Counted from the stretch's first letter, positions 7,321 to 59,797 are shown. The stretch: 64,000 nucleotides of DNA from Bacteroidaceae bacterium (GCA_017481745.1 JAFUOV010000011.1:72629-136628); one strand, 5' to 3'. Notes: generated by a model from the sequence alone, not told the origin. Numbers and translations: made by a program.

Positions 7321-7392
7321 GGCCCATTCGTCTATCGGTTAGGACGCAAGATTTTCATTCTTGAAAGAGCGGTTCGATTCCGCTATGGGCTA
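7321..7392 (+). tRNA. tRNA-Glu (anticodon UUC)
   Basis: Cloverleaf folded by eye. Acceptor stem is GGCCCAT/ATGGGCT, anticodon stem CAAGA/TCTTG with loop TTTTCAT (anticodon TTC), and T arm AGCGG-TTCGATT-CCGCT. CCA is not encoded. Confidence 0.9.
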
Positions 7393-7419
7393 CAGATAAT
7401 AAATAAAACACTAAAGAAT

Positions 7420-7671
7420 ATGGCAAATCATAAATCTGCTAAAAAAAGAATTAGAGAGACACAAGTAAGAAACTTGCACAACCGTTACTATGCTAAAACT
7501 GCTCGTAACGCTATGCGTAAGTTGCGTGCTACCACTGTAAAAGATGAGGCAGCCGAATTGTACAAGAAAGTAAGCTCAATGCTCGACAAGCTCGCTAAGA
7601 AGAATATCATTCACGCTAACAAAGCAGCTAACCTCAAGTCGAAGCTTGCTCTTCACGTTAACGCTCTCTAA
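7420..7671 (+). CDS. rpsT: 30S ribosomal protein S20
   Basis: [36 protein letters not shown]..., 83 aa and highly basic. The start is 27 nt after the upstream tRNA. Confidence 0.95.
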
Positions 7672-7714
7672 TCGGAGTTTAACCTTTACAGGTGGTTGTT
7701 AAACCCCTGATGAT

Positions 7715-7789
7715 GGCCCATTCGTCTATCGGTTAGGACGCAAGATTTTCATTCTTGAAAGAGCGGTTCGATTCCGCTATGGGCTACCA
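7715..7789 (+). tRNA. tRNA-Glu (anticodon UUC), second copy, CCA encoded
   Basis: Positions 7715-7786 are 72/72 identical to 7321-7392. Here they are followed by CCA (7787-7789). Confidence 0.9.
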
Positions 7790-7790
7790 A

Positions 7791-7818
7791 GACCGTCTAA
7801 ATCAGACGGTCTTTTCTT
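7791..7818 (+). terminator. Rho-independent terminator of the tRNA/rpsT unit
   Basis: Stem GACCGTCT/AGACGGTC with loop AAATC, followed by TTTTCTT. Confidence 0.75.
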
Positions 7819-7870
7819 GTGTGGCGATACTTCATCATCGCTGTCTATTCATAACCCTATATATTAAGCA

Positions 7871-7906
7871 ACAACCACAAGACCAACGATTGAGTCTTGT
7901 GGTTGT
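7871..7906. terminator. 13-bp hairpin between convergent units (terminator-like, lacks a clear U-tract)
   Basis: ACAACCACAAGAC (7871-7883) pairs with GTCTTGTGGTTGT (7894-7906). It lies 62 nt downstream of the antiporter gene stop. Confidence 0.4.
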
Positions 7907-7967
7907 TTCACTATGCAATGTCTCGAAAAACGTTTCAGGCAGTATGGGTCGCGCTATTGCGGTTGCT

Positions 7968-9434
7968 TTATATCTTTATTTTCTCACGTGGTTTTACCTC
8001 TTGCGATAGCAACAGCAAGCGGTCGCCAACAATAAGCTGTACCGAGCCGTTGGGAACGATGTAATCTTCGCCGCGGCGTATAAGCATCACCAGCGCGCCT
8101 TTGGGCAACTTCACCTCTTTGAGTGTAACGCCGTCTACAAGCATATCGGCGGTAACGTCAATGGCGTTGAGCGATGTGTCGAGCTCTTCGGGGATTTCTA
8201 TACCGAAGTGGTCGGGTGTTTCGGGTTGTGGTTCCGACACCTTTAACCAGCGCGCCATGGTAGAAAGGGTTGTGCCTTGAACAATGAGCGATAGTATTGT
8301 TACAAAAAATACGACATTGAAAATGATATTTGCTCCCTCAACATTGGCTATAATGGGGTAGGTGGCAAATAGGATGGGTGCTGCACCACGTAGACCCACC
8401 CACGACACGAAGAGGCGAGAGGTGAGCTTCATCTTGCGGAATGGTAGTAGGCAGATGAAAACACTGAGAGGACGACCAACGATAATCATGAAGATACCAA
8501 TGAGTGCTCCTGCTCCGGCTATCGACATCATCTCGCGCGGATTTACCAAAAGACCCAATATCAAGAACAATACAATTTGCAACAACCATGTTACACCATC
8601 GAGGAAGGTCGAAATTTCGCGTTTGAAGCAAATGCGGCTATTTCCTACTACGATACCGGCAATGTATACAGCCAAGAAACCGTTACCATGGCACACATCG
8701 GTGATTGAGTATACAAAGAAAGCCAATCCCAAAACAACAATGGGGTATAATGACGTGTTGTGCAACGATAGTTTGTTGATAATCCATACCGAGGCTCTAC
8801 CCAACAGGAAGCCGGCAATGCCACCTACGGCAAATTGTATCAAAAGCATTGATACCACCTCGTTGGCAGATACGCCTCCCGAGCCTACAACTTGTATAAG
8901 TACCAGTGTAAGCATATATGCCATGGGGTCGTTACTACCACTCTCAAGCTCCAGCATGGGTCGCAGATTGTGCTTGAGCGACATACGCTGCGAGCGTAGT
9001 ATGTTGAATACCGAGGCAGAGTCGGTAGACGACATGGTTGCTGCCAGTAGTAGTGAGGTAGTCAGTGATAACGAGATGTTTATCCATCCAAATCCCGATA
9101 GCCAGTAGATAAAAAGACCCGAAAAGAGGGTTGTTAATACAACGCCCAGAGTCGATAACACGATACCCGGAGTAAGTACCGGCTTGATGTCGGAAAATCG
9201 GGTGTCAAGACCACCAGAAAATAGTATGACACTCAAGGCTATAACACCTATAAATTGTGCTTCAGATGCATTATGAAATTGTAATCCAAGACCGTCGCTG
9301 CCAAAAAGCATTCCGGCAATTAAGAAGACAAGTAGTGTGGGGACACCAAAGCGGTATCCGGCTTTGCTGAGCACTATGCTGACGATGAGTAGGATAGAGC
9401 CCACAAGTAAGATATTTCCGGTGGTAATTATCAT
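7968..9434 (-). CDS. nhaP2: K+(Na+)/H+ antiporter of the NhaP2/CvrA type with a C-terminal TrkA-C domain
   Basis: About 12 hydrophobic helices, then a soluble tail LKEVKLPKGALVMLIRRGEDYIVPNGSVQLIVGDRLLLLS (TrkA-C-like). I chose the start at ATG 9434 (MIITTGNILLVGS...). A -7 box lies inside the longer track ORF. Confidence 0.75.
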   Translation of the reverse strand: MIITTGNILLVGSILLIVSIVLSKAGYRFGVPTLLVFLIAGMLFGSDGLGLQFHNASEAQFIGVIALSVILFSGGLDTRFSDIKPVLTPGIVLSTLGVVLTTLFSGLFIYWLSGFGWINISLSLTTSLLLAATMSSTDSASVFNILRSQRMSLKHNLRPMLELESGSNDPMAYMLTLVLIQVVGSGGVSANEVVSMLLIQFAVGGIAGFLLGRASVWIINKLSLHNTSLYPIVVLGLAFFVYSITDVCHGNGFLAVYIAGIVVGNSRICFKREISTFLDGVTWLLQIVLFLILGLLVNPREMMSIAGAGALIGIFMIIVGRPLSVFICLLPFRKMKLTSRLFVSWVGLRGAAPILFATYPIIANVEGANIIFNVVFFVTILSLIVQGTTLSTMARWLKVSEPQPETPDHFGIEIPEELDTSLNAIDVTADMLVDGVTLKEVKLPKGALVMLIRRGEDYIVPNGSVQLIVGDRLLLLSQEVKPREKIKI

Positions 9435-9462
9435 TGTTTTTTTATTATTTATCCAACTTGTA

Positions 9463-9470
9463 CAAAAATA
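9463..9470 (-). promoter_or_regulatory. -7 promoter box (TATTTTTG) for the antiporter gene
   Basis: The reverse complement of caaaaata matches TAnnTTTG. It lies 29 nt upstream of ATG 9434. Confidence 0.5.
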
Positions 9471-9563
9471 GTGAAAACAAAGTGTAAAAACAAGTTCTTG
9501 CAGTGTTGCTTTACATAAAACAAATTTTTTACAACATATTTTTGCAAAAAACGCCGCCAAATA

Positions 9564-9596
9564 TTTGGAAGATACATCAAAAATGTATTACCTTTG
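9564..9596 (+). promoter_or_regulatory. Promoter TTTG-N21-TACCTTTG for tRNA-Glu(CUC)
   Basis: TTTG at 9564-9567, a 21-nt spacer, then TACCTTTG at 9589-9596. It lies 20 nt upstream of the tRNA 5' end. Confidence 0.6.
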
Positions 9597-9615
9597 TCGC
9601 ACCAAAAAGGAAAAG

Positions 9616-9687
9616 GGCCGATTCGTCTATCGGTTAGGACGTAAGATTCTCAATCTTAAAAGAGGGGTTCGATTCCCCTATCGGCTA
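9616..9687 (+). tRNA. tRNA-Glu (anticodon CUC)
   Basis: Acceptor stem GGCCGAT/ATCGGCT, anticodon stem TAAGA/TCTTA with loop TTCTCAA (anticodon CTC), and T arm AGGGG-TTCGATT-CCCCT. Confidence 0.9.
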
Positions 9688-9692
9688 CAATG

Positions 9693-46850: not shown

Positions 46851-47186
46851 ATTCTTGTTTTCTTTTGGTTCTGTTTTATCAGTGCAATGATTGCACAAAC
46901 TAAAAACCTGCATAAGCAACTAATACTCATGCAAGGCTACTTTTGCGAAACAAAGATACGAAAAAATAATGAAATTTACTGCTATATAATCGAAAAAATA
47001 TGCGCAGATTTATGCTTAAAAGTTTATAAAAAACAAATTGTTTTTATCTCTTTTTTGATTGTTTTCAATACGCATATTATCAGTGTGTTACAGCGATTGT
47101 ATTTCCTATGCAATAGACCCGTTTATACAACTTCTTGCATACGAAAAAAGGTTGCGCCAATTTTTCTGACACAACCCTTTATGATG

Positions 47187-47259
47187 TGACCCCGGAGAGG
47201 CTCGAACTCTCGACCCAATGATTAAGAGTCATTTGCTCTACCAACTGAGCTACGGAGTC
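47187..47259 (-). tRNA. tRNA-Lys (anticodon CUU)
   Basis: The reverse complement is GACTCCGTAGCTCAGTTGGTAGAGCAAATGACTCTTAATCATTGGGTCGAGAGTTCGAGCCTCTCCGGGGTCA. The anticodon loop is CTCTTAA, and the acceptor stem is GACTCCG/CGGGGTC. Confidence 0.9.
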
Positions 47260-47413: not shown

Positions 47414-47433
47414 CAACCGTAAAATCATTGTGG

Positions 47434-47510
47434 AAGGATTTGACTGCTTGCAACCACACAAAAAAATTGCTAAAACTGTTCTATGTCGAGCTGCCTATCG
47501 GGCGGTTTTG
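47434..47510 (+). promoter_or_regulatory. Candidate SAM-responsive leader element (class uncertain) plus a weak attenuator hairpin
   Basis: The segment is GGATTTGACTGCTTGCAACC...AAATTGCTAAAAC. GCAA (47450-47453) can pair with TTGC (47467-47470). The GAUUU...GCUU...UGCUAAAA layout resembles my recollection of the SAM-II/SAM-I-clan conserved cores. A hairpin CTGCC-TATCG-GGCGG followed by TTTTG lies at 47491-47510. Confidence 0.3.
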
Positions 47511-47604: not shown

Positions 47605-48924
47605 ATGAACTATTTATTCACTTCCGAATCGGTGTCTGAAGGACACCCCGATAAAGTAGCCGACCAACTGTCGGATGCTATACTTGACGAGTTCTTGGCG
47701 CAGGATGCCACCTCTAAAGTAGCTTGCGAAACACTGGTAACAACCGGACAGGTTGTGCTTGCCGGTGAAGTGAAATCGACTGCATACGTCGACTTGATGG
47801 ATACTGCACGTCGTGTTATCAACCGTATTGGTTACAACAAAAGTGCTTACAAATTTGACGGCGATTCTTGTGGTATTTTCTCTGCCATCCATGAGCAGAG
47901 TGCCGACATCAATCGTGGTGTTGAGCGCAAAGATCCCATGGAGCAAGGTGCAGGCGACCAAGGTATGATGTTTGGCTACGCTTGTAACGAAACCGACAAT
48001 TATATGCCTCTCTCGCTCGAGTTGTCGCATCTGTTGTTGGTTGAGCTTGCCAATATACGTCGTGAGGCGGAGCAGATGACTTATCTGCGCAAAGGTCGTG
48101 TTACCTCTTATCTTCGCCCCGACTCGAAGTCGCAAGTAACAATCGAATATGACGAGCAGAACAAGCCTGTGCGCATACACACGATTGTTATTTCAACCCA
48201 ACACGACGAGTTTATAGCTGCTGCCGACAACACCCCTGAGGCTCAGTTGCAAGCCGATGAGAAGATGCTTGCCACTATCCGCGAAGATGTCGAGAAGGTG
48301 CTTTTGCCTCGTGTAAAGGCTCAGTTGCCCGAGCGTGTGCAAGCCCTCTTTGACGATGCTTTGATATTGCACGTCAATCCTACCGGTAAGTTTGTTATTG
48401 GTGGTCCTCATGGCGATACCGGCTTGACAGGTCGCAAGATTATTGTCGATACTTATGGTGGTAAAGGTGCGCATGGTGGTGGTGCTTTCTCGGGTAAAGA
48501 CCCCTCGAAGGTCGACCGCTCGGCTGCCTATGCTGCACGCCATATAGCCAAGAACTTGGTTGCTGCCGGTGTGGCAGACGAGGTGCTTGTGCAGGTGTCG
48601 TATGCTATTGGTGTGGCTCGTCCTGTAAGTATATATGTCAATACTTATGGCAAGTCGCATGTGAAGCAGAGTGATGCCGAGATAGCTGCTATTGTCGACC
48701 AACTTTTCGACCTGCGCCCGCGCGCTATCGAGGAGCGCCTCAAGTTGCGCAATCCTATCTATGAGGAGACTGCCTCGTATGGTCATATGGGTCGCACACC
48801 GCGCACTGTTACCAAGACATTTGCTTCGCGTTATTTGCCCGAACCTATTGTTCGTGAGGTTGAGTTGTTTACTTGGGAGAAACTCGACTATGTTGATGCC
48901 GTACGCAAGGCATTCGATTTGTAA
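47605..48924 (+). CDS. metK: S-adenosylmethionine synthase
   Basis: [34 protein letters not shown] and [16 protein letters not shown]. 439 aa. Confidence 0.95.
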
Positions 48925-48995: not shown

Positions 48996-50042
48996 TTATC
49001 CGATTGTTTGTAGCACACGCTCAACGATAGTTTGTGGCAGGATGTTGCGTAGGCAGGCATAGTCGCCTCTGTGGCAAGGTTTGTTGCCAAATACCGAGCA
49101 GGGACGGCAGGGTAGGTCGGTCTCGACAATAAGCTGCGTTGACACGCCATAACCCATAAATCCGGCGTAACGATGTGTTGCGCCCCATATAGAGACTACC
49201 GGTACGTGTGTGAGCGCTGCCAAGTGCATATTGGCAGAGTCCATCGACACCATAACGTCTAAGTGGCTGATGAGTGCCAGCTCTACGGGAAATCCGTTGC
49301 GACGGTCGGCAAGCGATGTTACATGCTCGTATTTATCGCGCCAAGCTCCCAATATTTTTGCCTCGTGCTCGCCTGCTCCAAAGAGGAATATGCGAGTATC
49401 TTTTTGTTGGCTCAGTAGCGCTACAACCTTTTCCATGAGGTCGATAGGGTATATCTTGCCCTCGTGCTTGGCAAAGGGTGCTATGCCTATCCATTTTTCG
49501 CCGGCTTGCTTGGGCGATGACAGGTGGGCAAATGTCTCAGGGTTGCCGCGTTCTGCGCCGTATAGCGAGTCGAATTGTGGCGCATAAGGCAATCCCATGC
49601 GGGCAAAGACTTCGGCGTAGCGCTCGCTCGATGTTTTGAGTTGCACCATGCGCTTGTTGTGGCGTGCGGTGAGTAGTTTCTTGCCTATTCTACCTTTGTC
49701 GATGATGTGGATAGGCTTGCCCATAAATCGTAGCAAGAAGCGCAAGAAGTGTGTGCGCATTACGTCGTGAAGGTCTACCACAGCATCAATGTCCAGCGCG
49801 TTCAGCTCATGAGCCAATCGCCATATACCCACGATGCCTTTGTGGCGGTCGTAAATCTGTGCTACGTATAGTTGCAGGTTGGCGGGGTGATTGACAAAAA
49901 GCGACGATGCCACCTTTTGTGTAAGCATTACAAAGGTGGTATCGGGATAGGCTCGGCACACCGAGTATACTTGTGGCACAGTCATTGCCACGTCGCCCAA
50001 TGCCGACAAGCGCACTACAAGCACTTTCTTATATTCTGCCAC
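48996..50042 (-). CDS. Glycosyltransferase family 9 (heptosyltransferase-like)
   Basis: N-terminus KKVLVVRLSALGDVAMTVP. The C-terminal region DSANMHLAAL...PVVSIWG is typical of GT9. 348 aa. Confidence 0.8.
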   Translation of the reverse strand: MAEYKKVLVVRLSALGDVAMTVPQVYSVCRAYPDTTFVMLTQKVASSLFVNHPANLQLYVAQIYDRHKGIVGIWRLAHELNALDIDAVVDLHDVMRTHFLRFLLRFMGKPIHIIDKGRIGKKLLTARHNKRMVQLKTSSERYAEVFARMGLPYAPQFDSLYGAERGNPETFAHLSSPKQAGEKWIGIAPFAKHEGKIYPIDLMEKVVALLSQQKDTRIFLFGAGEHEAKILGAWRDKYEHVTSLADRRNGFPVELALISHLDVMVSMDSANMHLAALTHVPVVSIWGATHRYAGFMGYGVSTQLIVETDLPCRPCSVFGNKPCHRGDYACLRNILPQTIVERVLQTIG

Positions 50043-50081
50043 GACTGCGATAAGATTATTCTTTACAACTATTGTCGGCTG

Positions 50082-50687
50082 TTATTTCTTGCCGTACAAT
50101 ACAGGGTTGAGGTTGGGGTCGTTATACATCTTCATTTGCTTGTACACCTTCATGTACTTGTTACCGGTAGCTATGTCGTTCAATAGCTGGTCGATAGCAG
50201 TAGAGAGGTCTACGCGTTGTTGCAACAATACATTCAACTTGTTGGTGCAAGCCTCGATGTGTTCGGCGGCAGCATCGGTGCGCTCTACCTCTTGTTGCAT
50301 GTGATATATTTTTAGCGCGAGGATAGAGAGGCGGTCGATAGCCCAAGCGGGGCTCTCGGTGTTGATTGTAGCATCGGCAGCTACCTTTACGTCTTTGTAT
50401 TGGTCGAGGAAGTAGCTGTCTATCAACTCTACAAGGTCGGTGCGCTCCTGATTGCTGCGGTCGATGCGGCGTTTGATAGCCAATGCCTCTACCGGGTCAA
50501 TCTCGGGGTTGCGAATGATATCTTCGAGGTGCCATTGTACGGCATCAATCCAATTCTTGAGGAAGAGAAAATAGTTTATTGTGCGCTCCTCATAGGGGTT
50601 TTCAACTACTGCATCTACATTGTCATACTTGTGATAGAGGGTAGTTGTGTCCCAAAATATCTTGTTACATACTTCGCTGAAACTCAT
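50082..50687 (-). CDS. DUF4254-like protein (common neighbour of GT9 genes in Bacteroidota)
   Basis: 201 aa and soluble. Contains the motif ESPAWAIDRLSILALKIYHM. The family name is from memory. Codons 14-33 are duplicated at 56748-56807. Confidence 0.5.
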   Translation of the reverse strand: MSFSEVCNKIFWDTTTLYHKYDNVDAVVENPYEERTINYFLFLKNWIDAVQWHLEDIIRNPEIDPVEALAIKRRIDRSNQERTDLVELIDSYFLDQYKDVKVAADATINTESPAWAIDRLSILALKIYHMQQEVERTDAAAEHIEACTNKLNVLLQQRVDLSTAIDQLLNDIATGNKYMKVYKQMKMYNDPNLNPVLYGKK

Positions 50688-50712
50688 ATTGTCGTTTTTT
50701 TGTTATTTATCG

Positions 50713-50720
50713 CAAATATA
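50713..50720 (-). promoter_or_regulatory. -7 promoter box (TATATTTG) for the DUF4254-like/GT9 unit
   Basis: The reverse complement of caaatata lies 26 nt upstream of ATG 50687. Confidence 0.5.
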
Positions 50721-50821
50721 GAGTTTATAATTGTACGTTGCAAATTTTTGACCGATGTAAATACCTCTATTTGTTAAATGATAGTCGAATGACGGAGTGT
50801 GTATCGAGGGGGTAACTCATG

Positions 50822-50862
50822 CAAACAAAAAGAAACTGTGTCAAAATTTGCTTTTGACACAG
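50822..50862 (-). terminator. Rho-independent terminator of the pilus-like operon
   Basis: 11-bp stem CTGTGTCAAAA/TTTTGACACAG. On the minus strand it is followed by TTTCTTTTTGTTTG. Confidence 0.7.
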
Positions 50863-50908
50863 CTTCCTGAAGAGTTATTATAAATATCTATAAGGATATT
50901 GTTTTTTG

Positions 50909-53900
50909 TTAGTTGAGACGGCCAACGATTTCGTTGCGAATGTTCTTGCCTGTACCTGTACCGTTAGCCGAAACAGTTACATTTACAACAGAGCAGCCTG
51001 TTACATTGCTGTCAAAACCATTGAGGGCAGCACCTACTATCTGACCTGCATCACGACCGGCAGAGATTGTAACATTCTTGGCGGTACAATCTTTTATGTA
51101 GCCATTATGTTCTGCCAAGATACCGGCAATAGAACCTGCTTTGTCGCCACTTGCCTCGCTGTTGGCATAGGTACAAGAAACGTTGGCATTCAATACATGG
51201 CAATTCTCTACTGTTCCGATAAGATAACCGGCAATAACTGCGCAGTTGTGGTGACCTTTGATGGTTGCACCATCTACTGTCAAGTTCTTAATTACGCCCG
51301 ATGTGCCGTATGAGCCGTGTACCTCTACCCAACCGAAAAGACCTGATGAATAGTGGTCGCCTGTTTCAGCCTCTGAATCGACATTCAAGTTGTAGATAGT
51401 ATTGTTGTTACCATCGAATGTGCCCAAGAAACCGCAGTTGCCTGTTTGACCGATAGGTTCCCAATCAACGCCATCGAGGTCGATGTCGCCGGTAAGTTGT
51501 ATTGTTTTGCCCGAGAAGCTGTTTTTGTTTACGTTCAGTTCTTTGGCAAACCATTTCATGCCATCGACCGAGCCGATTGAGTATGTTTGGGTAGCATCGT
51601 CGTAAGTATAGTAGGGATAAGCCAAGTTGCCATCAATGTTGATAGTTACATATTGTTCGCCACCTTTGATGTTCCACAATGTGTTCTCGCTGAACAATCC
51701 CTTGCCAAAACCGTTGGCAGTTGTGTTGTTGATGTTTACAGTAAATTTCTCACCGTTGCTATTGATATCGATTGCAGTAACAGGCTTGCTGTCCCATGTG
51801 TAGCCAACCTCGGCAGCTGTAAATGTACAGTTGCTTATATTGATGGTTGTGTTGCTCTTATTATTGTCGTTGTATACTTGGATGGCTTTACCTTTTGAAG
51901 CGTTGAAAGTACAGCCTTCAAAGTCGGCGTTACCATAGTCGGTATAGATGTAGCTGTTTTGAGGATCGATAGTACAGTTGGTAAACTTAACAGCTCCCAT
52001 ATTACGGAATTGACCGGTGTATGTACAGTTATTAAATTCAGCCAATACGATACGTCCGAAACCTCCGGTATAAGAGCTGCCGGTGTTGGGCGACACAACG
52101 TTGATGTTGTCGAAGATTAGTGTCATGCCATCGGCGTAGCTGTTAAGACCGCCATCGGCTCCACCGGGGGTCTTGTTGAATTGCATTACAGAGCTTTTGC
52201 CCATGCCCTTGAATGTGATTGTTCCGGGAGTTGCAGTAGTCATCTTTGTAGGGATAACAAATTCGCCGGCAGGTATATTGATTATATCACCATCTGCAGC
52301 GGCAGCCAAAGCATCTGAAATTGAAGTGTAGAAAGCAGCTTTGCCCTCAATAGTGATTGCGCCTTCGAGAATTTTGCTTCCACCTGTTACATTTACCAAG
52401 TCAAATGTTGCGGGAGCATCGGCGTCAACCCATACAGCATTTACATTGTCGGCAGCAACGTTATCTATATTGACATTTTCGAGTGTGATGTCGGCACCGG
52501 CTGTCGATTTTACCATGATGGCAGCTTTCTTGGCTGTTGTAAAGGTTGCATTCTTAACTTCCAATGTTACTTTTGCAACATCTTCATTTACATATTGCTC
52601 GTCGATTTTGATACCACGACCTGCCGAGTTGATTGTCAAGCCGTCGATTTTTACTGTTTGACCGGCTGCCGAAATCCACAATGCGTAGTAGTCGTGTGTT
52701 TCGTTGATAGTTACATTTTTCAAAACCGAAGTTTTGCCATTGTTATCGAGTGCAAGAGCTTTTTCCAAAACTACATTTTCAAGTTGTACGTTGCTTTGGA
52801 ATGTTACGTCGTACGAGTTCCAAGTTCCTGTTTTTTGTGTACTTGTGAGCTTGGCATTGCGTATGATGATAGTTGCATCGGGGTTCACTGTGTTCAAGCG
52901 AGACCAGTAGTTGGTTGACAATGTGAGTGTGTGGTTGCCTTCGCCTGCTACGATGCCGGCGCCATCAATGATGATAGAGTCTGTTTCTGCACCACCAAGT
53001 TGGAGGTATGCATTACTTGCGTTCAACGAAACATTATCAGCCAAGACAATTCTTATTATTTTGTCGTTTTTCTTAACGGCATTTTCGAGTTGCTCGTTTG
53101 TTCTTACAACTACCACTGTTGTATCGGCGCTTTCGTCGAGATAATCGGGCTCGATTGTAACATTAACGTCGACACTGCTTGTGAGAAGTTGTCCGAAGAT
53201 GTTGGTACGGTGGTTTCTTTGTACGGGCACAGATCCTACGGTGCGGGTTTTCTCGTCAGAGCCGTTGGTGTAGGCAAATTGTACGTCTACAACTTCTTTG
53301 TCTGCCGATACCAACAAGTAGTTCATTGCGAGGTATTTGTAACCGGCAATGGGGAATGTCTCGCTTGTGGGAATGTTGTTCAAGTTGAACTTGCGTAGGT
53401 GCTGTGATGCTACATCGCCAGTTGCCAAATTCAAGGTAGTGTAAACGGGTACAGCCACCCACGATTGTGTAACATCATAACCTGCTTTTTTAGAGGCTTC
53501 GATGTCGTTTGTACCGATGTTGAGTTGTGCAAACGGACGAGTGAGCTTGATATCAACCGGCGACATGCCACTTGTTACGGTGAATGTTTGGTATTTGTAG
53601 AAAGCATCACGATTTTCGTCATTGCTTACGGCGTTGGTATAGTCTACTGTCATAGATTTGTTGGTGAGGTCGACAGTGTAGGGCGCATTGGGAGCAGCTG
53701 CCCAGAACAATACCGAGTAGGTGTTGCCGGTAGTGAGTTGCAAGTTGACGGTTGTGTTCAATTTGATAGTACCATCGGTAACGGTGAGTTCGTCGAGGAT
53801 GTCACCTTGAGCATCGTAAACGGCATACTGCAAGTGGGTAGCAGTAGTACCATCACTGTATGAACGGTTCACAATTTCGGGTGTGCCTATTTTGAACGAA

Positions 53901-54010
53901 ACGGTTGTTGTTTCGCCGGCATTGCCCAACAAGTTTTCATCTTCTTGGCAAGATGTTGTGAACAACATCATAGCTGCCAATGCACCATAGAAGAAATGTT
54001 TTGTTTTCAT
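50909..54010 (-). CDS. Large (1033 aa) surface lipoprotein: fimbrillin-like N-terminal region fused to beta-helix / GLUG-like repeats (putative pilus tip adhesin)
   Basis: Lipoprotein signal MLFTTSC. The C-terminal two thirds carry recurring beta-helix rung motifs: NNCTYTG, FTNCTI, FEGCTF, ISNCTFTA, IKNLTVDGATI, VENCHVLNANV, IKDCTAKNVTI and VTGCSVVNVTV. G-rich turns are also present: SGLFGWV, AGSIAGIL and AGQIVGAAL. Confidence 0.55.
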   Translation of the reverse strand: MKTKHFFYGALAAMMLFTTSCQEDENLLGNAGETTTVSFKIGTPEIVNRSYSDGTTATHLQYAVYDAQGDILDELTVTDGTIKLNTTVNLQLTTGNTYSVLFWAAAPNAPYTVDLTNKSMTVDYTNAVSNDENRDAFYKYQTFTVTSGMSPVDIKLTRPFAQLNIGTNDIEASKKAGYDVTQSWVAVPVYTTLNLATGDVASQHLRKFNLNNIPTSETFPIAGYKYLAMNYLLVSADKEVVDVQFAYTNGSDEKTRTVGSVPVQRNHRTNIFGQLLTSSVDVNVTIEPDYLDESADTTVVVVRTNEQLENAVKKNDKIIRIVLADNVSLNASNAYLQLGGAETDSIIIDGAGIVAGEGNHTLTLSTNYWSRLNTVNPDATIIIRNAKLTSTQKTGTWNSYDVTFQSNVQLENVVLEKALALDNNGKTSVLKNVTINETHDYYALWISAAGQTVKIDGLTINSAGRGIKIDEQYVNEDVAKVTLEVKNATFTTAKKAAIMVKSTAGADITLENVNIDNVAADNVNAVWVDADAPATFDLVNVTGGSKILEGAITIEGKAAFYTSISDALAAAADGDIINIPAGEFVIPTKMTTATPGTITFKGMGKSSVMQFNKTPGGADGGLNSYADGMTLIFDNINVVSPNTGSSYTGGFGRIVLAEFNNCTYTGQFRNMGAVKFTNCTIDPQNSYIYTDYGNADFEGCTFNASKGKAIQVYNDNNKSNTTINISNCTFTAAEVGYTWDSKPVTAIDINSNGEKFTVNINNTTANGFGKGLFSENTLWNIKGGEQYVTINIDGNLAYPYYTYDDATQTYSIGSVDGMKWFAKELNVNKNSFSGKTIQLTGDIDLDGVDWEPIGQTGNCGFLGTFDGNNNTIYNLNVDSEAETGDHYSSGLFGWVEVHGSYGTSGVIKNLTVDGATIKGHHNCAVIAGYLIGTVENCHVLNANVSCTYANSEASGDKAGSIAGILAEHNGYIKDCTAKNVTISAGRDAGQIVGAALNGFDSNVTGCSVVNVTVSANGTGTGKNIRNEIVGRLN

Positions 54011-54063
54011 AGGTTGTTTGTTTTTTTGTTGTTTGTAAATATGTTATTTGTTTGATATTATTT

Positions 54064-55140
54064 TTACCAATTAATCTCTATGTTGTAGTCATCGCCTTCG
54101 TATCCGGGTTGTATGCACACTCCTCCGTTGGCTATCGCTGTGAGGAATTCGCCCCTTACAACGGTGAGTTTGCTGCGTACAATGGGTATTTCTATTGTAG
54201 GGCTTGATGATATGAGTATGTTGTTTTGGTCGTAAACTTCGACGACTATGGCCATCAGGGTTTCGCTTCCGTTGACAAATATGTAGTCAAATCCCATCTC
54301 AATCTCTTGACTGTTCAGTGGGCGCATTGTGCTCTCAAACGACACCCTTTCCCAAGAGTCGGCAGGTTTGTCGGTGAACATGTTGTATTCAAAAGGCATA
54401 AACGACTTGTAGTGTATCACAATTCGATAGTCGTTCCAGCGCACGCTTTCCAATCGGCGGTCTATGGCGGTCTCTCCTCGGGTTATCACTCCCGACTCCT
54501 TCAATGCCTCTTCGACGCGGGTGAGGAACACCTCAACATCGGTCGATATGATTTGGAATTTTCCCATAGGACGTCGCATGTCGACCGTTGCTTCGTTTGC
54601 AATCTCATTGGCGGTGTTGCTTGTGTAGTACTCTTTGTTTATGACTACTGCTGAGGTTTCACCTCGGAAGGCATCGCGGAAATCGTTGCTGCCGGGATGG
54701 TTGTAGCGGTCGCGTAGTTTTATCTTTTCAAAGTTGTATGTATCGTAGAACTTATCTTCTTTGCTGCCGGCATCTATATAGTCTGCCCAAACCCGGAAGC
54801 GATATGCTCCCTCGGGCAGTTCTATACGTGCGGTATAATCGAGTTGATATATATTTGATTGAGTGATGACAAAAGTTGTGTCGGCTGTACGGCTCTCTGT
54901 TGCGACGTTGTCGGTGCGATATGCCTTTATGGTGTAGCGCACATCATGGGGCTCGACTTGAGCGTTTTCGGCGTTACTGCGTGTGCAAGTTATCTCTTTG
55001 TATAGCGGCATCTCGCTGTTAAAGTCGAGGTGTAGCAAGAAGGGAACGAGTGTATTCTCCTCCTCAGGAAATTCGTGCACATCGCAAGCTGTAAGCCATA
55101 GTACAGAGATGCACATAAGTATATATATGCATCTTTTCAT
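54064..55140 (-). CDS. Lipoprotein, FimB/Mfa2-like type V pilus anchor/accessory subunit (tentative)
   Basis: Lipoprotein signal MKRCIYILMCISVLWLTAC from ATG 55140. There is a 4-nt ATGA overlap with the upstream gene. The call rests on position and size within a DUF3575-led operon. Confidence 0.45.
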   Translation of the reverse strand: MKRCIYILMCISVLWLTACDVHEFPEEENTLVPFLLHLDFNSEMPLYKEITCTRSNAENAQVEPHDVRYTIKAYRTDNVATESRTADTTFVITQSNIYQLDYTARIELPEGAYRFRVWADYIDAGSKEDKFYDTYNFEKIKLRDRYNHPGSNDFRDAFRGETSAVVINKEYYTSNTANEIANEATVDMRRPMGKFQIISTDVEVFLTRVEEALKESGVITRGETAIDRRLESVRWNDYRIVIHYKSFMPFEYNMFTDKPADSWERVSFESTMRPLNSQEIEMGFDYIFVNGSETLMAIVVEVYDQNNILISSSPTIEIPIVRSKLTVVRGEFLTAIANGGVCIQPGYEGDDYNIEINW

Positions 55141-56441
55141 CGCTTGCCTCCTTTCTTGTCGAGGGGCAGTCGGTATGAAATCGTTATACCCACGTGGTCG
55201 ATACCCCAATAGGTGTCGTGGTAGGTGTTGTCGAGACGTCCGTTTTCGACGTTATGGAATGTGTCGTAGTAGAGGTCGTAAACACCACCACCCAAGGCAA
55301 GCTCCAGATGCCATCTTTGTGGTCTGTCAAGAGCGATACGGTATCCTACGTTAATGCCGCCACCCCAAGCCGGCGATGTACCGTTGTGGTCTTGGTAGCG
55401 ATAGTCGCCATTAAAGGCAAAGTTGTAGTATATAAAGCCGGCGTGAGCACCAAAGAACACACCTTCATTCTTGCTGTTGAGCCAATAACGAGCTTCGGGT
55501 ATAATGGCGAATGTGCGGAATTTCAATGAGGGCTGGGCGTAGTTCCATGCCGAGTAGTATATGGGCACAGAGAGCGACCAGTGAGGTGCCAAATCTACCT
55601 CGGCAGCCACATTCGATATGGCAAGTCCCCAAGCTGCGAGGTTGGTCTTCAAGTATAAGTGTCTTGTCCACACATCGGCGGGTGTTAGCGAAGAAGATGC
55701 AATATTGCATATTGTCGATGGCTTTGTCGGGGCTTGTGCCGCTATCTCCTTTATTTGTGGTTTTAGGACTTCGGTAGCCGGAGCATTCGATTTTGTTTTG
55801 GAGCGATAAATAAAGAGAGCCGATGAGTTTCTGATGAGAGGATACCATGTCGAAATCAGATACCGATACTCGGGCTGCTGTTTCATGCGCCACTTTTTGG
55901 TGTCGATGTTGACGTCGGCATTTATGATGGCCATAAATTTTTCTTTGGTCTTTTCCTTTAACGACTTGTCGTTTTTGATACATTCGCGTAGTTGGTCCCA
56001 CGACTCGCCATCGGAGTGTGATATTACTCTGGAAGAAACTTCGGGATGGTTGGTGTCGATATAGTTGCGTATTGATTGTGCCCGTTGTTCTGCCAGTCGA
56101 AGGTTGTATTTGAGTGTACCATCGGGCGACGATTGTGTGCGAATGACTACCGAATCTATGTACTCTATTCCTACCGAGTCGATGACATGCGCGAGGTGCA
56201 TCAAGGCATCGGCATTATTCATGTAGTTGGGGTCGATATCGTATTTGTTGAGCCTGAAGTGTACAGAAGTAGTATTGAGTTGTTGAGAAATATATATGTG
56301 TGGAGTATTGTGATTTGTGAGATTTGTGATAGCGTGTGTGTCGTTTGCAACTGCCTCGTTTTTTGCATTATGTGCACTATGAGCGTATGTAACGACCATG
56401 AAACACCAACAAAACACAACTGTTAAAAAATTTCTTTTCAT
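55137..56441 (-). CDS. DUF3575-like outer-membrane protein (first gene of type V pilus-type operons)
   Basis: Has a signal peptide. The C-terminal half LKTNLAAWGLAISNVAAEVDLAPHWSLSVPIYYSAWNY...GGGINVGYRIAL...LELALGGGVY matches my recollection of the DUF3575 barrel-like domain. Confidence 0.55.
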   Translation of the reverse strand: MKRNFLTVVFCWCFMVVTYAHSAHNAKNEAVANDTHAITNLTNHNTPHIYISQQLNTTSVHFRLNKYDIDPNYMNNADALMHLAHVIDSVGIEYIDSVVIRTQSSPDGTLKYNLRLAEQRAQSIRNYIDTNHPEVSSRVISHSDGESWDQLRECIKNDKSLKEKTKEKFMAIINADVNIDTKKWRMKQQPEYRYLISTWYPLIRNSSALFIYRSKTKSNAPATEVLKPQIKEIAAQAPTKPSTICNIASSSLTPADVWTRHLYLKTNLAAWGLAISNVAAEVDLAPHWSLSVPIYYSAWNYAQPSLKFRTFAIIPEARYWLNSKNEGVFFGAHAGFIYYNFAFNGDYRYQDHNGTSPAWGGGINVGYRIALDRPQRWHLELALGGGVYDLYYDTFHNVENGRLDNTYHDTYWGIDHVGITISYRLPLDKKGGKR

Positions 56442-56501
56442 TTATTAATCAGTCTATAAGACTTGGAAAAGATTTTACAAATAAAATATTCAATCAGATT
56501 G

Positions 56502-56509
56502 CAAATATA
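56502..56509 (-). promoter_or_regulatory. -7 promoter box (TATATTTG) for the pilus-like operon
   Basis: The reverse complement of caaatata lies 61 nt upstream of ATG 56441. A C7/G7 tract (56526-56532) lies 16 nt further upstream. Confidence 0.5.
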
Positions 56510-56747
56510 AGTATAAGAATATTTACCCCCCCTAACGGATGTTAAAAAATGTTATATATAAGGTTTTTGACACTTGAAGTAGGGCTTTTTCTTGTAATAG
56601 TTGTGTGTGCGAGTTGTATGTGTTTCTCTTGTTTGTTTGCTTTTGGGGTTACAATTATCTATAATGATATTATGTGTGTATGCTCTTATGGTGCAGATGT
56701 GATAATGTGGTGTTGTTGTATCTCGGGTGATACGAAAAAGGGTGAGT

Positions 56748-56807
56748 CTCATAGGAGTTTTCAACTACTGCATCTACATTGTCATACTTATGATAGAGGG
56801 TAGTTGT
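56748..56807 (-). pseudogene. 20-codon fragment of the DUF4254-like gene (direct repeat of 50589-50648)
   Basis: 58/60 nt are identical to 50589-50648 at a constant offset of 6159 nt. In the gene frame it reads TTTLYHKYDNVDAVVENSYE, against TTTLYHKYDNVDAVVENPYE in the intact gene. Confidence 0.85.
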
Positions 56808-56837
56808 ACCCCCTCAATAATGTCTAAATAATTGTGA

Positions 56838-56888
56838 GGAAAAATAAAAAAAGAATGTTACCATACCACAAAAGTATAGTAACATTCT
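56838..56888 (-). terminator. Rho-independent terminator of the rimP-nusA-infB operon
   Basis: 10-bp stem AGAATGTTAC/GTAACATTCT. On the minus strand it is followed by TTTTTTTATTTTT. Confidence 0.75.
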
Positions 56889-56935
56889 CTATGAGTAGTA
56901 TAAAAGAGGATTTATTGTTTTGTTATTTATGCTGA

Positions 56936-59797
56936 TTACAAGCTTTTCTTTACTTCTATCTCTTCGTAGGCTTCTATGAGGTCGCCCACTTTTACGTCGT
57001 TGTAGTTGGTGATGTTCAAACCGCACTCGTAGCCGGTGAGAACCTCTTTTACGTCGTCTTTGAAGCGTTTGAGTGAACCAAGTTCGCCGGTGTATATAAC
57101 GATACCGTCGCGGATGAGGCGTACGCGAGCCGAGCGGCGCAACTTACCTTCCTTAACGATACATCCGGCAATAGTACCCACCTTCGAGATGTGGAATGTC
57201 TCGCGTACCTCGGCAGTACCGATAACCTCCTCGCGTACCTCGGGCGAGAGCATGCCTTCCATAGCGGCTTTTACTTGCTCGATAGCATCGTAGATAATCG
57301 AGTACATGCGCACATCGACACCCTCTTTCTCTGCCAAGCGGCGTGCTGCCATAGAAGGACGTACTTGGAAGCCCACGATGATGGCGTTTGATGCTGCTGC
57401 AAGAATTATATCCGACTCTGAAATTTGTCCCACTGCTTTGTGCAGAACGTTGACTTGTATCTGCTCGGTCGAGAGCTTGATAAGTGAGTCTGTCAACGCC
57501 TCTACCGAACCGTCAACGTCACCCTTAACAATGATGTTGAGCTCTTGGAAGCCACCGACAGCGATGCGGCGACCTATATCGTCGAGTGTGAGGAGTTTTT
57601 GTGTACGCAAGCCTTGTTCGCGTTGTAATTGTTCGCGTTTGTTGGCAATCTCGCGAGCCTCTTGTTCGCTCTCCATTACGTTGAATGTGTCGCCTGCTTG
57701 GGGTGCGCCGTTCAAGCCGAGGATGAGTACCGGCTCGGCGGGTCCTGCCTCTTGTATGCGTTGGTTACGCTCGTTAAACATCGCTTTGATGCGACCATGG
57801 TGAGTACCTGCCAAGACAATATCGCCCATGCGGAGTGTACCGTTTTGTACCAATACGGTGGCCACATATCCACGACCTTTGTCGAGGGTCGATTCGATAA
57901 TAGAACCTACTGCGCGACGGTTGGGGTTGGCTTTGAGTTCGAGCATTTCTGCCTCAAGGAGTACCTTTTCGAGCAATTCGTCAACGCCGGTACCTTTCTT
58001 GGCAGAGATGTCTTGCGACTGGTATTTACCACCCCATTCCTCAACGAGGTAGTTCATATTGGCAAGTGTCTCTTTGATTTTGTCGGGGTTGGCGGCGGGC
58101 TTATCGACCTTGTTGATGGCAAAGACGATGGGCACACCGGCTGCCGATGCGTGGTTGATAGCCTCGACGGTTTGGGGCATGACGTTGTCGTCGGCTGCCA
58201 CAATGATGATGGCGATATCGGTAATCTTCGCACCACGAGCACGCATGGCGGTAAATGCCTCGTGACCCGGTGTGTCGAGGAATGTGATGTGGCGACCATC
58301 TTCGAGTGTTACGTTGTATGCACCAATGTGTTGTGTTATACCACCTGCCTCACCGGCAATAACATTGGCGTTACGGATGTAGTCGAGCAACGATGTCTTA
58401 CCGTGGTCTACGTGTCCCATTACGGTTACAATAGGCGGACGTTGCATCAAATCGTCGGGAGTATCTTCCTCAACGGCTATGGCTTCCGATACTTCGGCGC
58501 TTACATATTCTGTTTGGAACCCAAACTCCTCGGCAACGATGTTGATGGTTTCTGCATCGAGACGTTGGTTGATAGATACCATGATGCCAAGGCTCATACA
58601 AGTACCAATAACCTTGTTGATGGGTACATCCATCATAGATGCAAGGTCGTTGGCGGTAACAAACTCGGTGAGCTTGAGTATCTTGCTTTCGGCAAGTTCT
58701 TGCTCTACGCGCTCTTGCTCGCGAGTTGAGAATGCTTCGCGTTTCTCTTTACGCCATTTGGCGCCTTTCTTCTGACCCTTTTGGGTGAGGCGGGCAAGTG
58801 TCTCTTTGATTTGCTTTTGTACATCCTCTTCGTTTACCTCTGCCTTGATGGGGCGTTTGGGTTGTTTATTGGGCTTGCCGTTCTTTTTGTTGTTGGCGGC
58901 AGCGTTGTTGTTGGGTTGTTGGTTCTTGCGCTCGGGATTGGCACCTATGGTCGATGCTGTCTTCTCGATGTCAACGCGGTCTTTGTTGATGCGTTTGCGT
59001 TTCTTGCGCTCGCCGGTGGGTGTGGTAGCTGCGCCGGCTGCCGGTGCGACTTGTTGTTTTGCCTCGCGCTCTTTGCGTTTCTCTTCCTTCGATTTTTTCT
59101 TGGGACGAGTTTGTTGGTTGATGCTGTCGAGGTCTATGCGACCCAATACTTGGGGTTTGGGTGCTGCGGCAACACTGCCCAGTGAGAATACTTCATTCTT
59201 GTTCTCCTCAACCTCGGCTTTCTCCTCTTTTTTCTCTTCAACAGGAGCGGGAGCGGGTTTGGGCTCTTCGGTCTTCTTGGGTTGAGGTGCAGGAGCGGGT
59301 TTCTCCTCTTTCTTCTCAGCGACAACAGGTTTTTCCTCTTTCTTTACCTCTACTTTCTTGGGTTGAGGTGCGGGTTGTGGAGCTACCTTTTCAACGGGCT
59401 TCTCTTCCTTCTTCTCTACGACGGGCGCAGGAGCGGGTTGGGGCTCGGGTTTGGGTTGTTGAGTCTCGGCAGGTTTGGCAGTAGAGGGCTTGTTATCCAA
59501 GTCGATTGTACGCAAAACTTTGGGCTTTGCAGGCTCCGCAACAGTAACAGGAGTGGGTGTGGCGGGTTTCTCGACGGCAGGCGTAGGACGCTTTTGTCGC
59601 TCGAGGCTGATGTTGTCCGATTCTTTTTTCAAGATTTTATCGGGAGCAAACTCCTTGACAAGCAGGTCGTATTGCTCGTCGCTGATTTTTGCGTTGGGGT
59701 TTGAGTCGACCTCAATACCTTTCTTCTGGAGGAAACCGACAACTGTGTCGATACCTACGTTTAAGTCTCTTACTACTTTATTTAACCTTACTGACAT
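56936..59797 (-). CDS. infB: Translation initiation factor IF-2
   Basis: G-domain motifs [20 protein letters not shown] and NKVD. The N-terminal region is low-complexity and Pro/Lys/Glu-rich. 953 aa. Confidence 0.95.

Follow-up and report, generated by a model that had tools for sequence, protein, structure and literature searches.

Background

New genes are placed into bacterial chromosomes by several described processes, and each of them has something in common with the locus analyzed here. The locus lies in a 64,000-nt stretch of DNA, referred to below as the window, from an uncultured "Bacteroidaceae bacterium" lineage of metagenome-assembled genomes (GCA_017481745.1, JAFUOV010000011.1:72629-136628). 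In it, an operon of three type V pilus-like genes stands between infB and a gene of the DUF4254 family, together with two same-orientation copies of a 60-nt segment of DUF4254 coding sequence. Comparison of alleles with and without the operon makes it very probable that the operon arrived by illegitimate insertion, and that the extra copy of the segment is a by-product of the joining rather than an att site, a target duplication or a site of excision.

Integrative elements that carry a replacement gene end (attL/attR) likewise have gene-sequence repeats in the same orientation, with the gene intact on one side. In contrast to them, the repeat here is internal to a coding sequence (codons 14-33) rather than terminal in a gene, the DNA that separates the insert's right joint from the gene's own repeat copy is retained in the empty site, and there is no integrase. 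Homology-facilitated illegitimate recombination normally puts foreign DNA beside a homologous anchor that is itself not duplicated; at this locus, by contrast, a gene segment is present twice rather than once. Strain-variable islets, the flexible-gene cassettes of gene-specific sweeps, share with the locus one chromosomal site that is occupied in some members of a species and empty in others, and a near-invariant insert on flanks that differ and turn mosaic beyond about 1 kb. The cassette described here departs from them in being carried also by a haplogroup diverged by 3%, so that it is not simply a very recent arrival. SPDIR (short-patch double illegitimate recombination) is a double illegitimate recombination at microhomologies in bacteria (bioRxiv 10.1101/2023.11.22.568220). 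The present locus resembles it in joint homology of 4 nt or less, in the lack of recombinase or element features, in the loss of few target bases, and in a short stretch at one joint that would have been copied from about 115 nt away; SPDIR patches, however, measure tens of nucleotides and come without a 6-kb foreign cassette, and the mechanism at this locus is read from its end product only.

Results and Discussion

Empty and occupied alleles

The allele survey took in contigs that encode the exact DUF4254 protein of the window, from independent ruminant-gut assemblies. The sample comes to about 21 long contigs, with a second haplogroup known from short Logan contigs only. In the empty form (about nine contigs: L001, L002 and three similar, L006, L007, L009 and L010), only about 205 nt separate infB from the DUF4254 gene behind it; in the occupied form (about twelve: L003 and eight similar, L004, L005 and L008) the three-gene operon lies between these genes. 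All genes of the region are on the minus strand, and the parts are named along that strand: A for the infB end with its terminator and 45 nt more, B for the operon, C for a short segment that includes the DUF4254 promoter, R for the repeat, and D for the remainder of DUF4254. Alignment then gives A-C-R-D for the empty allele and A-R1-B-C-R2-D for the occupied one. The indel is R1 plus B, a block of about 6041 nt at 56804-50764 of the window (R1 at 56804-56748, B at 56747-50764). The features of the occupied locus are, in gene order:

infB, 56936-59797, minus strand, on the flank A side
Intrinsic terminator hairpin of infB, 56850-56890, minus strand, from a terminator scan, in flank A and common to empty and occupied alleles
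End of flank A (...CCTCACAATTATTTAGACATTATTGAGGGGGTACA), 56805-56849, minus strand, the 45 nt past the terminator, its last 4 nt being TACA (56808-56805)
R1, 56748-56804, minus strand, 57 nt (or 61 nt if TACA is counted) of non-coding sequence that repeats DUF4254 codons 15-33, opening the inserted block
Left 306 nt of insert B, 56442-56747, minus strand, where the pilus operon has its leader and promoter, with a TATATTTG -7-like box at 56502-56509 and a G7/G8 tract at 56526-56532
DUF3575/OmpA-like gene, 55137-56441, minus strand, 434 aa, OmpA-like in its N-terminal part and DUF3575 in its C-terminal part
DUF6562 gene, 54064-55140, minus strand, a 358-aa lipoprotein (Pfam PF20200, 2.9e-76), its ATG overlapping the stop codon of the upstream gene
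Gene for a 1033-aa protein, 50909-54010, minus strand, in which a DUF6562 pilin-like module at the N terminus is followed by about 730 aa without a family match
Right tail of insert B, 50764-50908, minus strand, with the operon terminator hairpin at 50830-50868; B ends ...TTTAACAAATAGAGG at 50764
Segment C, 50649-50763, minus strand, 115 nt, once in each allele, with the DUF4254 promoter and codons 1-13
DUF4254 promoter, TTTG-N20-TATATTTG, 50713-50744, minus strand, inside segment C
Intact DUF4254 gene, 50082-50687, minus strand, 201 aa (Pfam PF14063, 1.5e-64)
R2, 50589-50648, minus strand, codons 14-33 within the intact gene, the probable template for R1
GT9 (heptosyltransferase-like) gene, 48996-50042, minus strand, downstream of DUF4254, its 5' part in a haplotype block of about 1.2 kb linked to the insert

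The insertion point is about 20 nt upstream of the DUF4254 promoter (TTTG-N20-TATATTTG, which we take to be of the canonical Bacteroidetes type), and the promoter is untouched. The infB terminator is equal in sequence in empty and occupied loci except for the length of the adjacent T run. An initial annotation, made from the window by itself, had proposed that an insertion event placed the operon between infB and the DUF4254/GT9 unit, to be checked by looking for empty sites at the infB-DUF4254 junction. Such sites occur in contigs with an identical DUF4254 protein, which bears the proposal out and refutes the contrary case of one arrangement in all genomes. The gene layout it gave (infB terminator, gene fragment, three-gene unit with promoter and terminator, DUF4254/GT9) holds as described. 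Its picture of an operon bracketed by repeats does not hold, because the indel is R1 plus B, with a right edge 115 nt before R2.

Homology at the joints comes to 4 nt at most. At the left joint of the occupied allele (...ATTATTGAGGGGGTACA/ACTACCCTCTATCAT..., a slash marking the joint), flank and gene share TACA only. At the right joint (...TTTAACAAATAGAGG/TATTTACATCGGTCAAAAATTTGC) there are a few ambiguous nucleotides of homology, and about 2 nt of the target (GA) were lost. The empty junction itself comes in two variants, ...ATTATTGAGGGTATAGATATTTACACCGACAAAAATTTGC and ...ATTATTGGGGGTACAGATATTTACACCGAC..., with the type-2 empty alleles reading ...ATTATTGGGGGTACAGATATTTACA. An A before TATTT is present in empty alleles and in the sister species and is missing from occupied alleles. 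Three differences within 12 nt of the right joint were considered as junction-associated mutagenesis, an idea that was dropped, the sister species having the occupied-allele T at one of them; these clustered differences are more likely to be old allelic ones.

Origin of the repeat copy beside infB

The repeat was reported initially as a pair of 60-nt direct repeats at 50589-50648 and 56748-56807, with 58/60 identity and a spacing of 6159 nt, and these figures are confirmed, as are both mismatches: CAC/CAT at His codon 19, which is synonymous, and CCC/TCC at codon 31, which changes Pro to Ser. A search of the 64-kb window that allowed three mismatches found these two copies, and no comparable pair arose in 100 dinucleotide-preserving shuffles, the chance expectation being none. 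Each empty allele has a single copy, the DUF4254 gene's own. A longer, dispersed repeat family, an outcome that would have told against the initial proposal, is thereby ruled out. A scan of Joint Genome Institute (JGI) metagenome contigs with the repeat core gave 0 matches, but that collection apparently lacks this species, so the result is uninformative.

A repeat finder extends the match to 65 nt (61/65), the extra 5 nt being GGGGT. This GGGGT, like GGGGGTACA, belongs to the infB-side flank A and not to the duplicated segment, because the empty alleles carry the same flank sequence. Immediately upstream of R1, and within flank A, stands an in-frame TGA. R1 with the 306-nt leader that follows it matches no Rfam family (50000-57500 scanned, even at E<=1). 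An 84-aa open reading frame (ORF) on the plus strand that overlaps R1 (56549-56803) was treated as spurious; it has no family match and forms a single-member cluster.

The variants of the repeat were compared together with 5 nt of upstream context:

Sister species copy: GGGATACAACAACC...CACAAG...GAAAATCCC
Empty-allele copies: GGGACACAACTACC...CACAAG...GAAAATCCC
Window R2: GGGACACAACTACC...CACAAG...GAAAACCCC
Haplogroup-2 R2: GGGATACAACTACC...CATAAG... (contig ends)
R1, both haplogroups: (flank)TACAACTACC...CATAAG...GAAAACTCC

At codon 30, R1 and the window's R2 have a derived AAC where the empty alleles and the sister species have AAT; at codon 19, R1 and the R2 of haplogroup 2 have a derived CAT where the others have CAC. 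Because these derived bases are shared with R2 copies of the insert-bearing lineage, R1 is, on this comparison, shown to be of cis origin, copied from that lineage's own DUF4254 gene. Judged in the same way, the mismatches between R1 and R2 in the window are partly allelic and not the outcome of decay after duplication. The TCC at codon 31 is private to R1, and Pro31 is invariant in 13 DUF4254 variants.

Spread of the insert among strains

Among eight occupied contigs, R1 plus B differs by 0-6 nt in 6068 (at most 0.1%), whereas in their flanks the same contigs show as many as 80 differences in 9000 nt, a figure that rises to about 110 when the two allele classes are compared (0.5-1.2%). On the right, the occupied alleles all agree in haplotype over about 1.2 kb; within its first 960 nt, nine fixed differences set them apart from every empty allele, and the window's exact GT9 protein is found on occupied long contigs only. 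On the left, about 0.7 kb is common to the occupied alleles, and the flanks become mosaic outside these two blocks. The pattern is that of a unit, made up of R1, the operon and linked flank, that would have moved between strains by homologous recombination in the flanks. The second haplogroup (L101, L113-L115), which comes from ruminant samples (the ERR151570xx runs), is about 97% identical to the first over the whole 6.1 kb and has identical R1-B and B-C joints; between the two, the 1033-aa protein is about 98.8% identical and the DUF3575 protein 95%. Because a haplogroup diverged by 3% has the same joints, the comparison supports a single origin of the architecture.

An imperfect direct repeat of 23 nt (minus-strand sequence AATATCMTTATAGATAWTTRTAA; 20/23) was observed at 50878-50900 and 56649-56671, about 80-135 nt inside each end of the insert. 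It is kept in haplogroup 2 and may be due to chance in AT-rich DNA.

Mechanism of the insertion

Three novel joints, A-R1, R1-B and B-C, have to be explained without element machinery. What they display is what illegitimate recombination with a templated junction should leave: homology of 4 nt or less, a loss of about 2 nt, and filler made of sequence from the same lineage. A foreign, self-contained cassette of about 6 kb (promoter, three pilus-like genes, terminator) would have been joined about 20 nt upstream of the DUF4254 promoter by illegitimate recombination at microhomology, neither site-specific nor transpositional. In that same round of repair or replication, a nascent strand at the infB-side joint would have used TACA to pair with DUF4254 coding sequence at a distance of 115 nt, copied 57-61 nt of it (codons 14/15-33), and next switched into the foreign DNA. 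R1 would be the resulting non-coding templated filler at the infB-proximal joint, with no function, and the DUF4254 promoter and gene would have stayed intact. Later, R1 and the operon, with about 0.7 kb of left and 1.2 kb of right flank, would have been exchanged by homologous recombination to give the presence/absence polymorphism. This course, which resembles microhomology-mediated template switching, is the one that we prefer: the chances seem evenly balanced that there was a one-step event, an illegitimate joining with a templated junctional copy, and then a spread by homologous recombination. In a more specific form, which we regard as possible but rather doubtful, a single replication-template switch, similar to microhomology-mediated break-induced replication (MMBIR), captured both the 6-kb operon and the 57-61-nt gene copy, and the cassette then swept a recombining population. 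The single template switch (as opposed to several steps), like the direction and the vehicle of the original transfer, is something that we infer.

A history of several steps, somewhat unlikely in our view, would begin with the arrival of the operon and a duplication of the promoter and codons 1-33 (about 175 nt); the resulting A-C-R-B-C-R-D would then lose 115 nt, which leaves R1. The operon could have entered by a Campbell-type single crossover of a circle that carried it together with the DUF4254 5' region, or while a DUF4254 gene broken at codon 33/34 underwent homology-facilitated repair; the left copy would then have lost its promoter and codons 1-13 through a deletion at GGG/TACA microhomology. 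Such a course yields repeats in the same orientation, with the 5' end of the gene restored beside an intact gene, and the A-R1 joint does resemble a small deletion between ...GGGGGTACA and ...GGGATACA of a haplogroup-2-type gene. Selection for an intact DUF4254-GT9 pair is plausible as well, because the pair is kept in nearly all of the 80 Bacteroidales loci examined. Against this, two or three independent events are required, neither about 45 contigs nor the diverged haplogroup shows an intermediate (a C-R/ACTCACCC junction), and the donor or circle must already have joined the operon to the DUF4254 5' end of this very species, which is itself unexplained.

Gain or loss

The reverse polarity, with the occupied arrangement ancestral and the empty alleles secondary deletions of R1 and the operon, appears improbable. 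The insert is old, since the haplogroup diverged by 3% has it too, the junction is without an outgroup, and there are short ACAA/GAGG motifs near both ends. Yet the left edge of the indel (56805-56808), located by setting empty against occupied alleles, and the outer end of the R1/R2 homology, located independently by setting R1 against R2, agree to within 4 nt. That coincidence is expected of an insertion, because R1 is the first part of the insert, while a random deletion endpoint within 6 kb would fall on the outer edge of R1 with a chance of only about 1e-3. No microhomology pair in the occupied allele recreates either empty junction, and the empty variants GAGGGTATAGA and GGGGGTACAGA would need independent deletions with identical endpoints or a later divergence. 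The A before TATTT, found in empty alleles and the sister species and not in occupied alleles, and an insert diversity far below that of the flanks, speak against loss in the same way. The edge coincidence, the empty junctions that short homologies fail to recreate and the shared A together favor insertion over deletion, as far as allele sequences can tell. The composition of the insert was compared with that of other parts of the window, the initial annotation having advised a comparison with the flanks, and the insert is mildly atypical, with a tetranucleotide distance in the top 3% of 6-kb windows and a GC content of 0.444 (mean of the other 6-kb windows, 0.464); there is a weak foreign signal and no more than that.

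In the sister lineage (L103-L112; DUF4254 94% identical), the gene order is abhydrolase-DUF4254-GT9-TonB/ExbBD (tonB-exbD-exbB). The sister lineage thus has DUF4254-GT9 elsewhere, and therefore the adjacency of infB and DUF4254 in the window species is itself a rearrangement. In none of the 80 Bacteroidales loci do the surroundings of DUF4254 include infB, metK or pilus genes. The region upstream of the sister-species DUF4254 gene aligns with C from ...ATATTT(C/A)CA rightwards, the promoter-proximal part. Many sister-lineage contigs end a few hundred nucleotides upstream of the alpha/beta-hydrolase gene, and what lies upstream of that gene is a restriction-modification cluster in L103 and unrelated genes in L104, which suggests that this DNA is another variable spot.

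Excision and mobile-element features

The initial annotation held that the repeats could still mediate precise excision, and this expectation fails. Recombination between R1 and R2 would remove B together with C and would not restore the empty allele, which keeps C. The deletion junction would read A/R-D (TTGAGGGGGTACAACTACCC...CCTATGAGGAGCGCAC), with a hybrid repeat directly behind the in-frame TGA. Because the promoter and codons 1-13 would be gone and an in-frame TGA would precede what is left, the product would be a DUF4254 null allele. No such structure occurs among about 45 contigs examined. Logan contigs of 6186-6187 nt that run from R1 to R2 were considered as circles and rejected, their ends being the first and last unique 31-mers, which are breaks of the assembly graph.

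Searches of Pfam and NCBIfam found no integrase or transposase domain in the segment, as had been noted before; three ORFs fill the insert and give only DUF3575/OmpA and DUF6562 matches, and the neighbors are infB and DUF4254. The ends of the insert have no terminal inverted repeats, and no tRNA gene is adjacent, the nearest one, and the sole one near the segment, lying about 3.3 kb beyond the DUF4254-side end. A site-specific, att-flanked element should have an empty site that equals the product of recombination between its repeats, and the empty site here differs from that product. A transposon or insertion sequence should have terminal inverted repeats, a transposase and an abutting target-site duplication, and what is found is a 60-nt copy that abuts the left end only. 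The suggestion that the pair of R1 and R2 constitutes attL/attR-like sites, or else a long target duplication, with the recombinase lost or acting in trans and precise excision still possible, can hardly be credited: same-orientation 60-nt repeats around a self-contained operon beside a conserved housekeeping gene invite it, but the empty alleles, with the 115-nt segment C kept, are not what R1 and R2 would produce by recombination, there is no recombinase gene, tRNA target or terminal inverted repeat, and the Logan contigs from R1 to R2 stop as expected of k=31 unitigs and not at circle junctions. The repeat pair is not an excision switch and the locus is not a mobile element; this is ordinary strain-to-strain genome variation.

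Several observations weigh against the illegitimate insertion proposed here. The right joint is not clean (GAGG/TATTT versus TA(Y)AGA/TATTT), and with a divergence of 3% between haplogroups the event cannot be very recent, so that the joints may have been obscured by changes since then. The search for a donor identified none, the nearest outside homologues (67% for DUF3575, 74% for DUF6562) being on short contigs in other contexts, and with the nearest of them at 67% at the protein level, microhomology at R1-B and B-C cannot be scored. A DUF4254 scan of genome contigs (best match 83%) gave no outgroup with infB next to DUF4254, and the polarity accordingly rests on the boundary coincidence, the low insert diversity and one shared base. 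A one-step and a multi-step history, finally, are indistinguishable by sequence alone.

The pilus operon and its promoter

The label "type V pilus-like", applied to the operon from the start, now has support at the level of fold. The 358-aa protein was modeled with AlphaFold2 on 55 homologues (pLDDT 78, pTM 0.75), and the model was compared with the PDB by Foldseek. The top 22 PDB matches are all Bacteroidales pilins of the FimA/Mfa family (E 8.5e-10 to 6e-5, TM 0.28-0.54), among them 4qdg (BT2657; E = 8.5e-10), 5nfi (Mfa2) and 5nf4 (Mfa3). The modest TM-scores are to be expected because there are two hinged domains. The protein is thus, by its predicted structure, type V pilin-like. It has a lipobox, ...LWLTAC, whose Cys19 is invariant in the 55 homologues, and the 1033-aa protein has another, ...LFTTSC (Cys21), both as read from sequence.

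As in type V (FimA/Mfa) pili, two pilin-like proteins, one small and one large, are encoded in the operon, and the 358-aa protein is a lipoprotein whose predicted fold is that of Mfa2, Mfa3 and Bacteroides FimA-family structures. Unlike in those systems, the sequence families are DUF6562 and DUF3575 and not the curated FimA/Mfa families of Pfam; searches of Pfam, NCBIfam and PDB sequences gave no pilin match, only DUF6562 and DUF3575. The 434-aa protein matches PF12099 in Pfam (4.8e-32) and OmpA weakly, with weak NCBIfam matches to Pal/OmpA. To our knowledge, a DUF3575/OmpA-like outer-membrane protein is not part of the Porphyromonas gingivalis fim or mfa operons. Residues ~300-1033 of the 1033-aa protein (window 50909-53110, about 730 aa) have no Pfam, NCBIfam or PDB sequence match and are rich in N-x-T/G repeats; as a guess, this C-terminal region may be a putative tip-adhesin domain.

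Upstream of the operon's TATATTTG box, at a distance of 16 nt, is a G tract (56526-56532, minus strand) that reads G7 in 13 contigs and G8 in six others (L014, L015, L016, L019, L119 and L101 being named with the tract), on alleles that are otherwise nearly identical. The motif GGGGGGG(G)TAA...TATATTTGCA recurs upstream of a homologous operon, 67% identical, that belongs to another genome (L102; G8). Slipped-strand phase variation of the pilus promoter may account for the G7/G8 tract.

Other features of the window

Within infB, the N-terminal low-complexity region, rich in Pro, Lys and Glu, contains imperfect tandem repeats (59215-59466), and the length of the protein varies among strains L001-L010 (953 versus 962 aa) independently of the pilus insert. 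On the other side of DUF4254 and GT9, a SAM-II riboswitch (47424-47483, plus strand; 72 bits against a gathering score of 44) stands upstream of metK (47605-48924), in an AT-rich spacer that also holds, on the other strand, a tRNA-Lys gene (47186-47259). At 7321-9688, three tRNA-Glu genes (two TTC, one CTC) lie together within 2.4 kb.

Conclusions

The locus is a natural example of a non-mobile operon for a surface structure entering a gut Bacteroidales chromosome without an integrase or transposase, and its joints can be read to the base, since empty, occupied and diverged occupied alleles are all at hand. It also carries a warning, in that a long direct repeat around an island proves by itself neither an att site nor an excision substrate; recombination between the repeats here would inactivate a conserved gene pair for envelope biosynthesis. 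If the reading of one template-switch event is true, it would be a case in nature of MMBIR-like gene acquisition without mobile-element machinery. The locus is a well-resolved instance of ordinary strain-variable gene content, made by illegitimate recombination and maintained by homologous exchange, and it leaves current understanding unchallenged. What this means for the organism is that its strains differ in a putative adhesive pilus.

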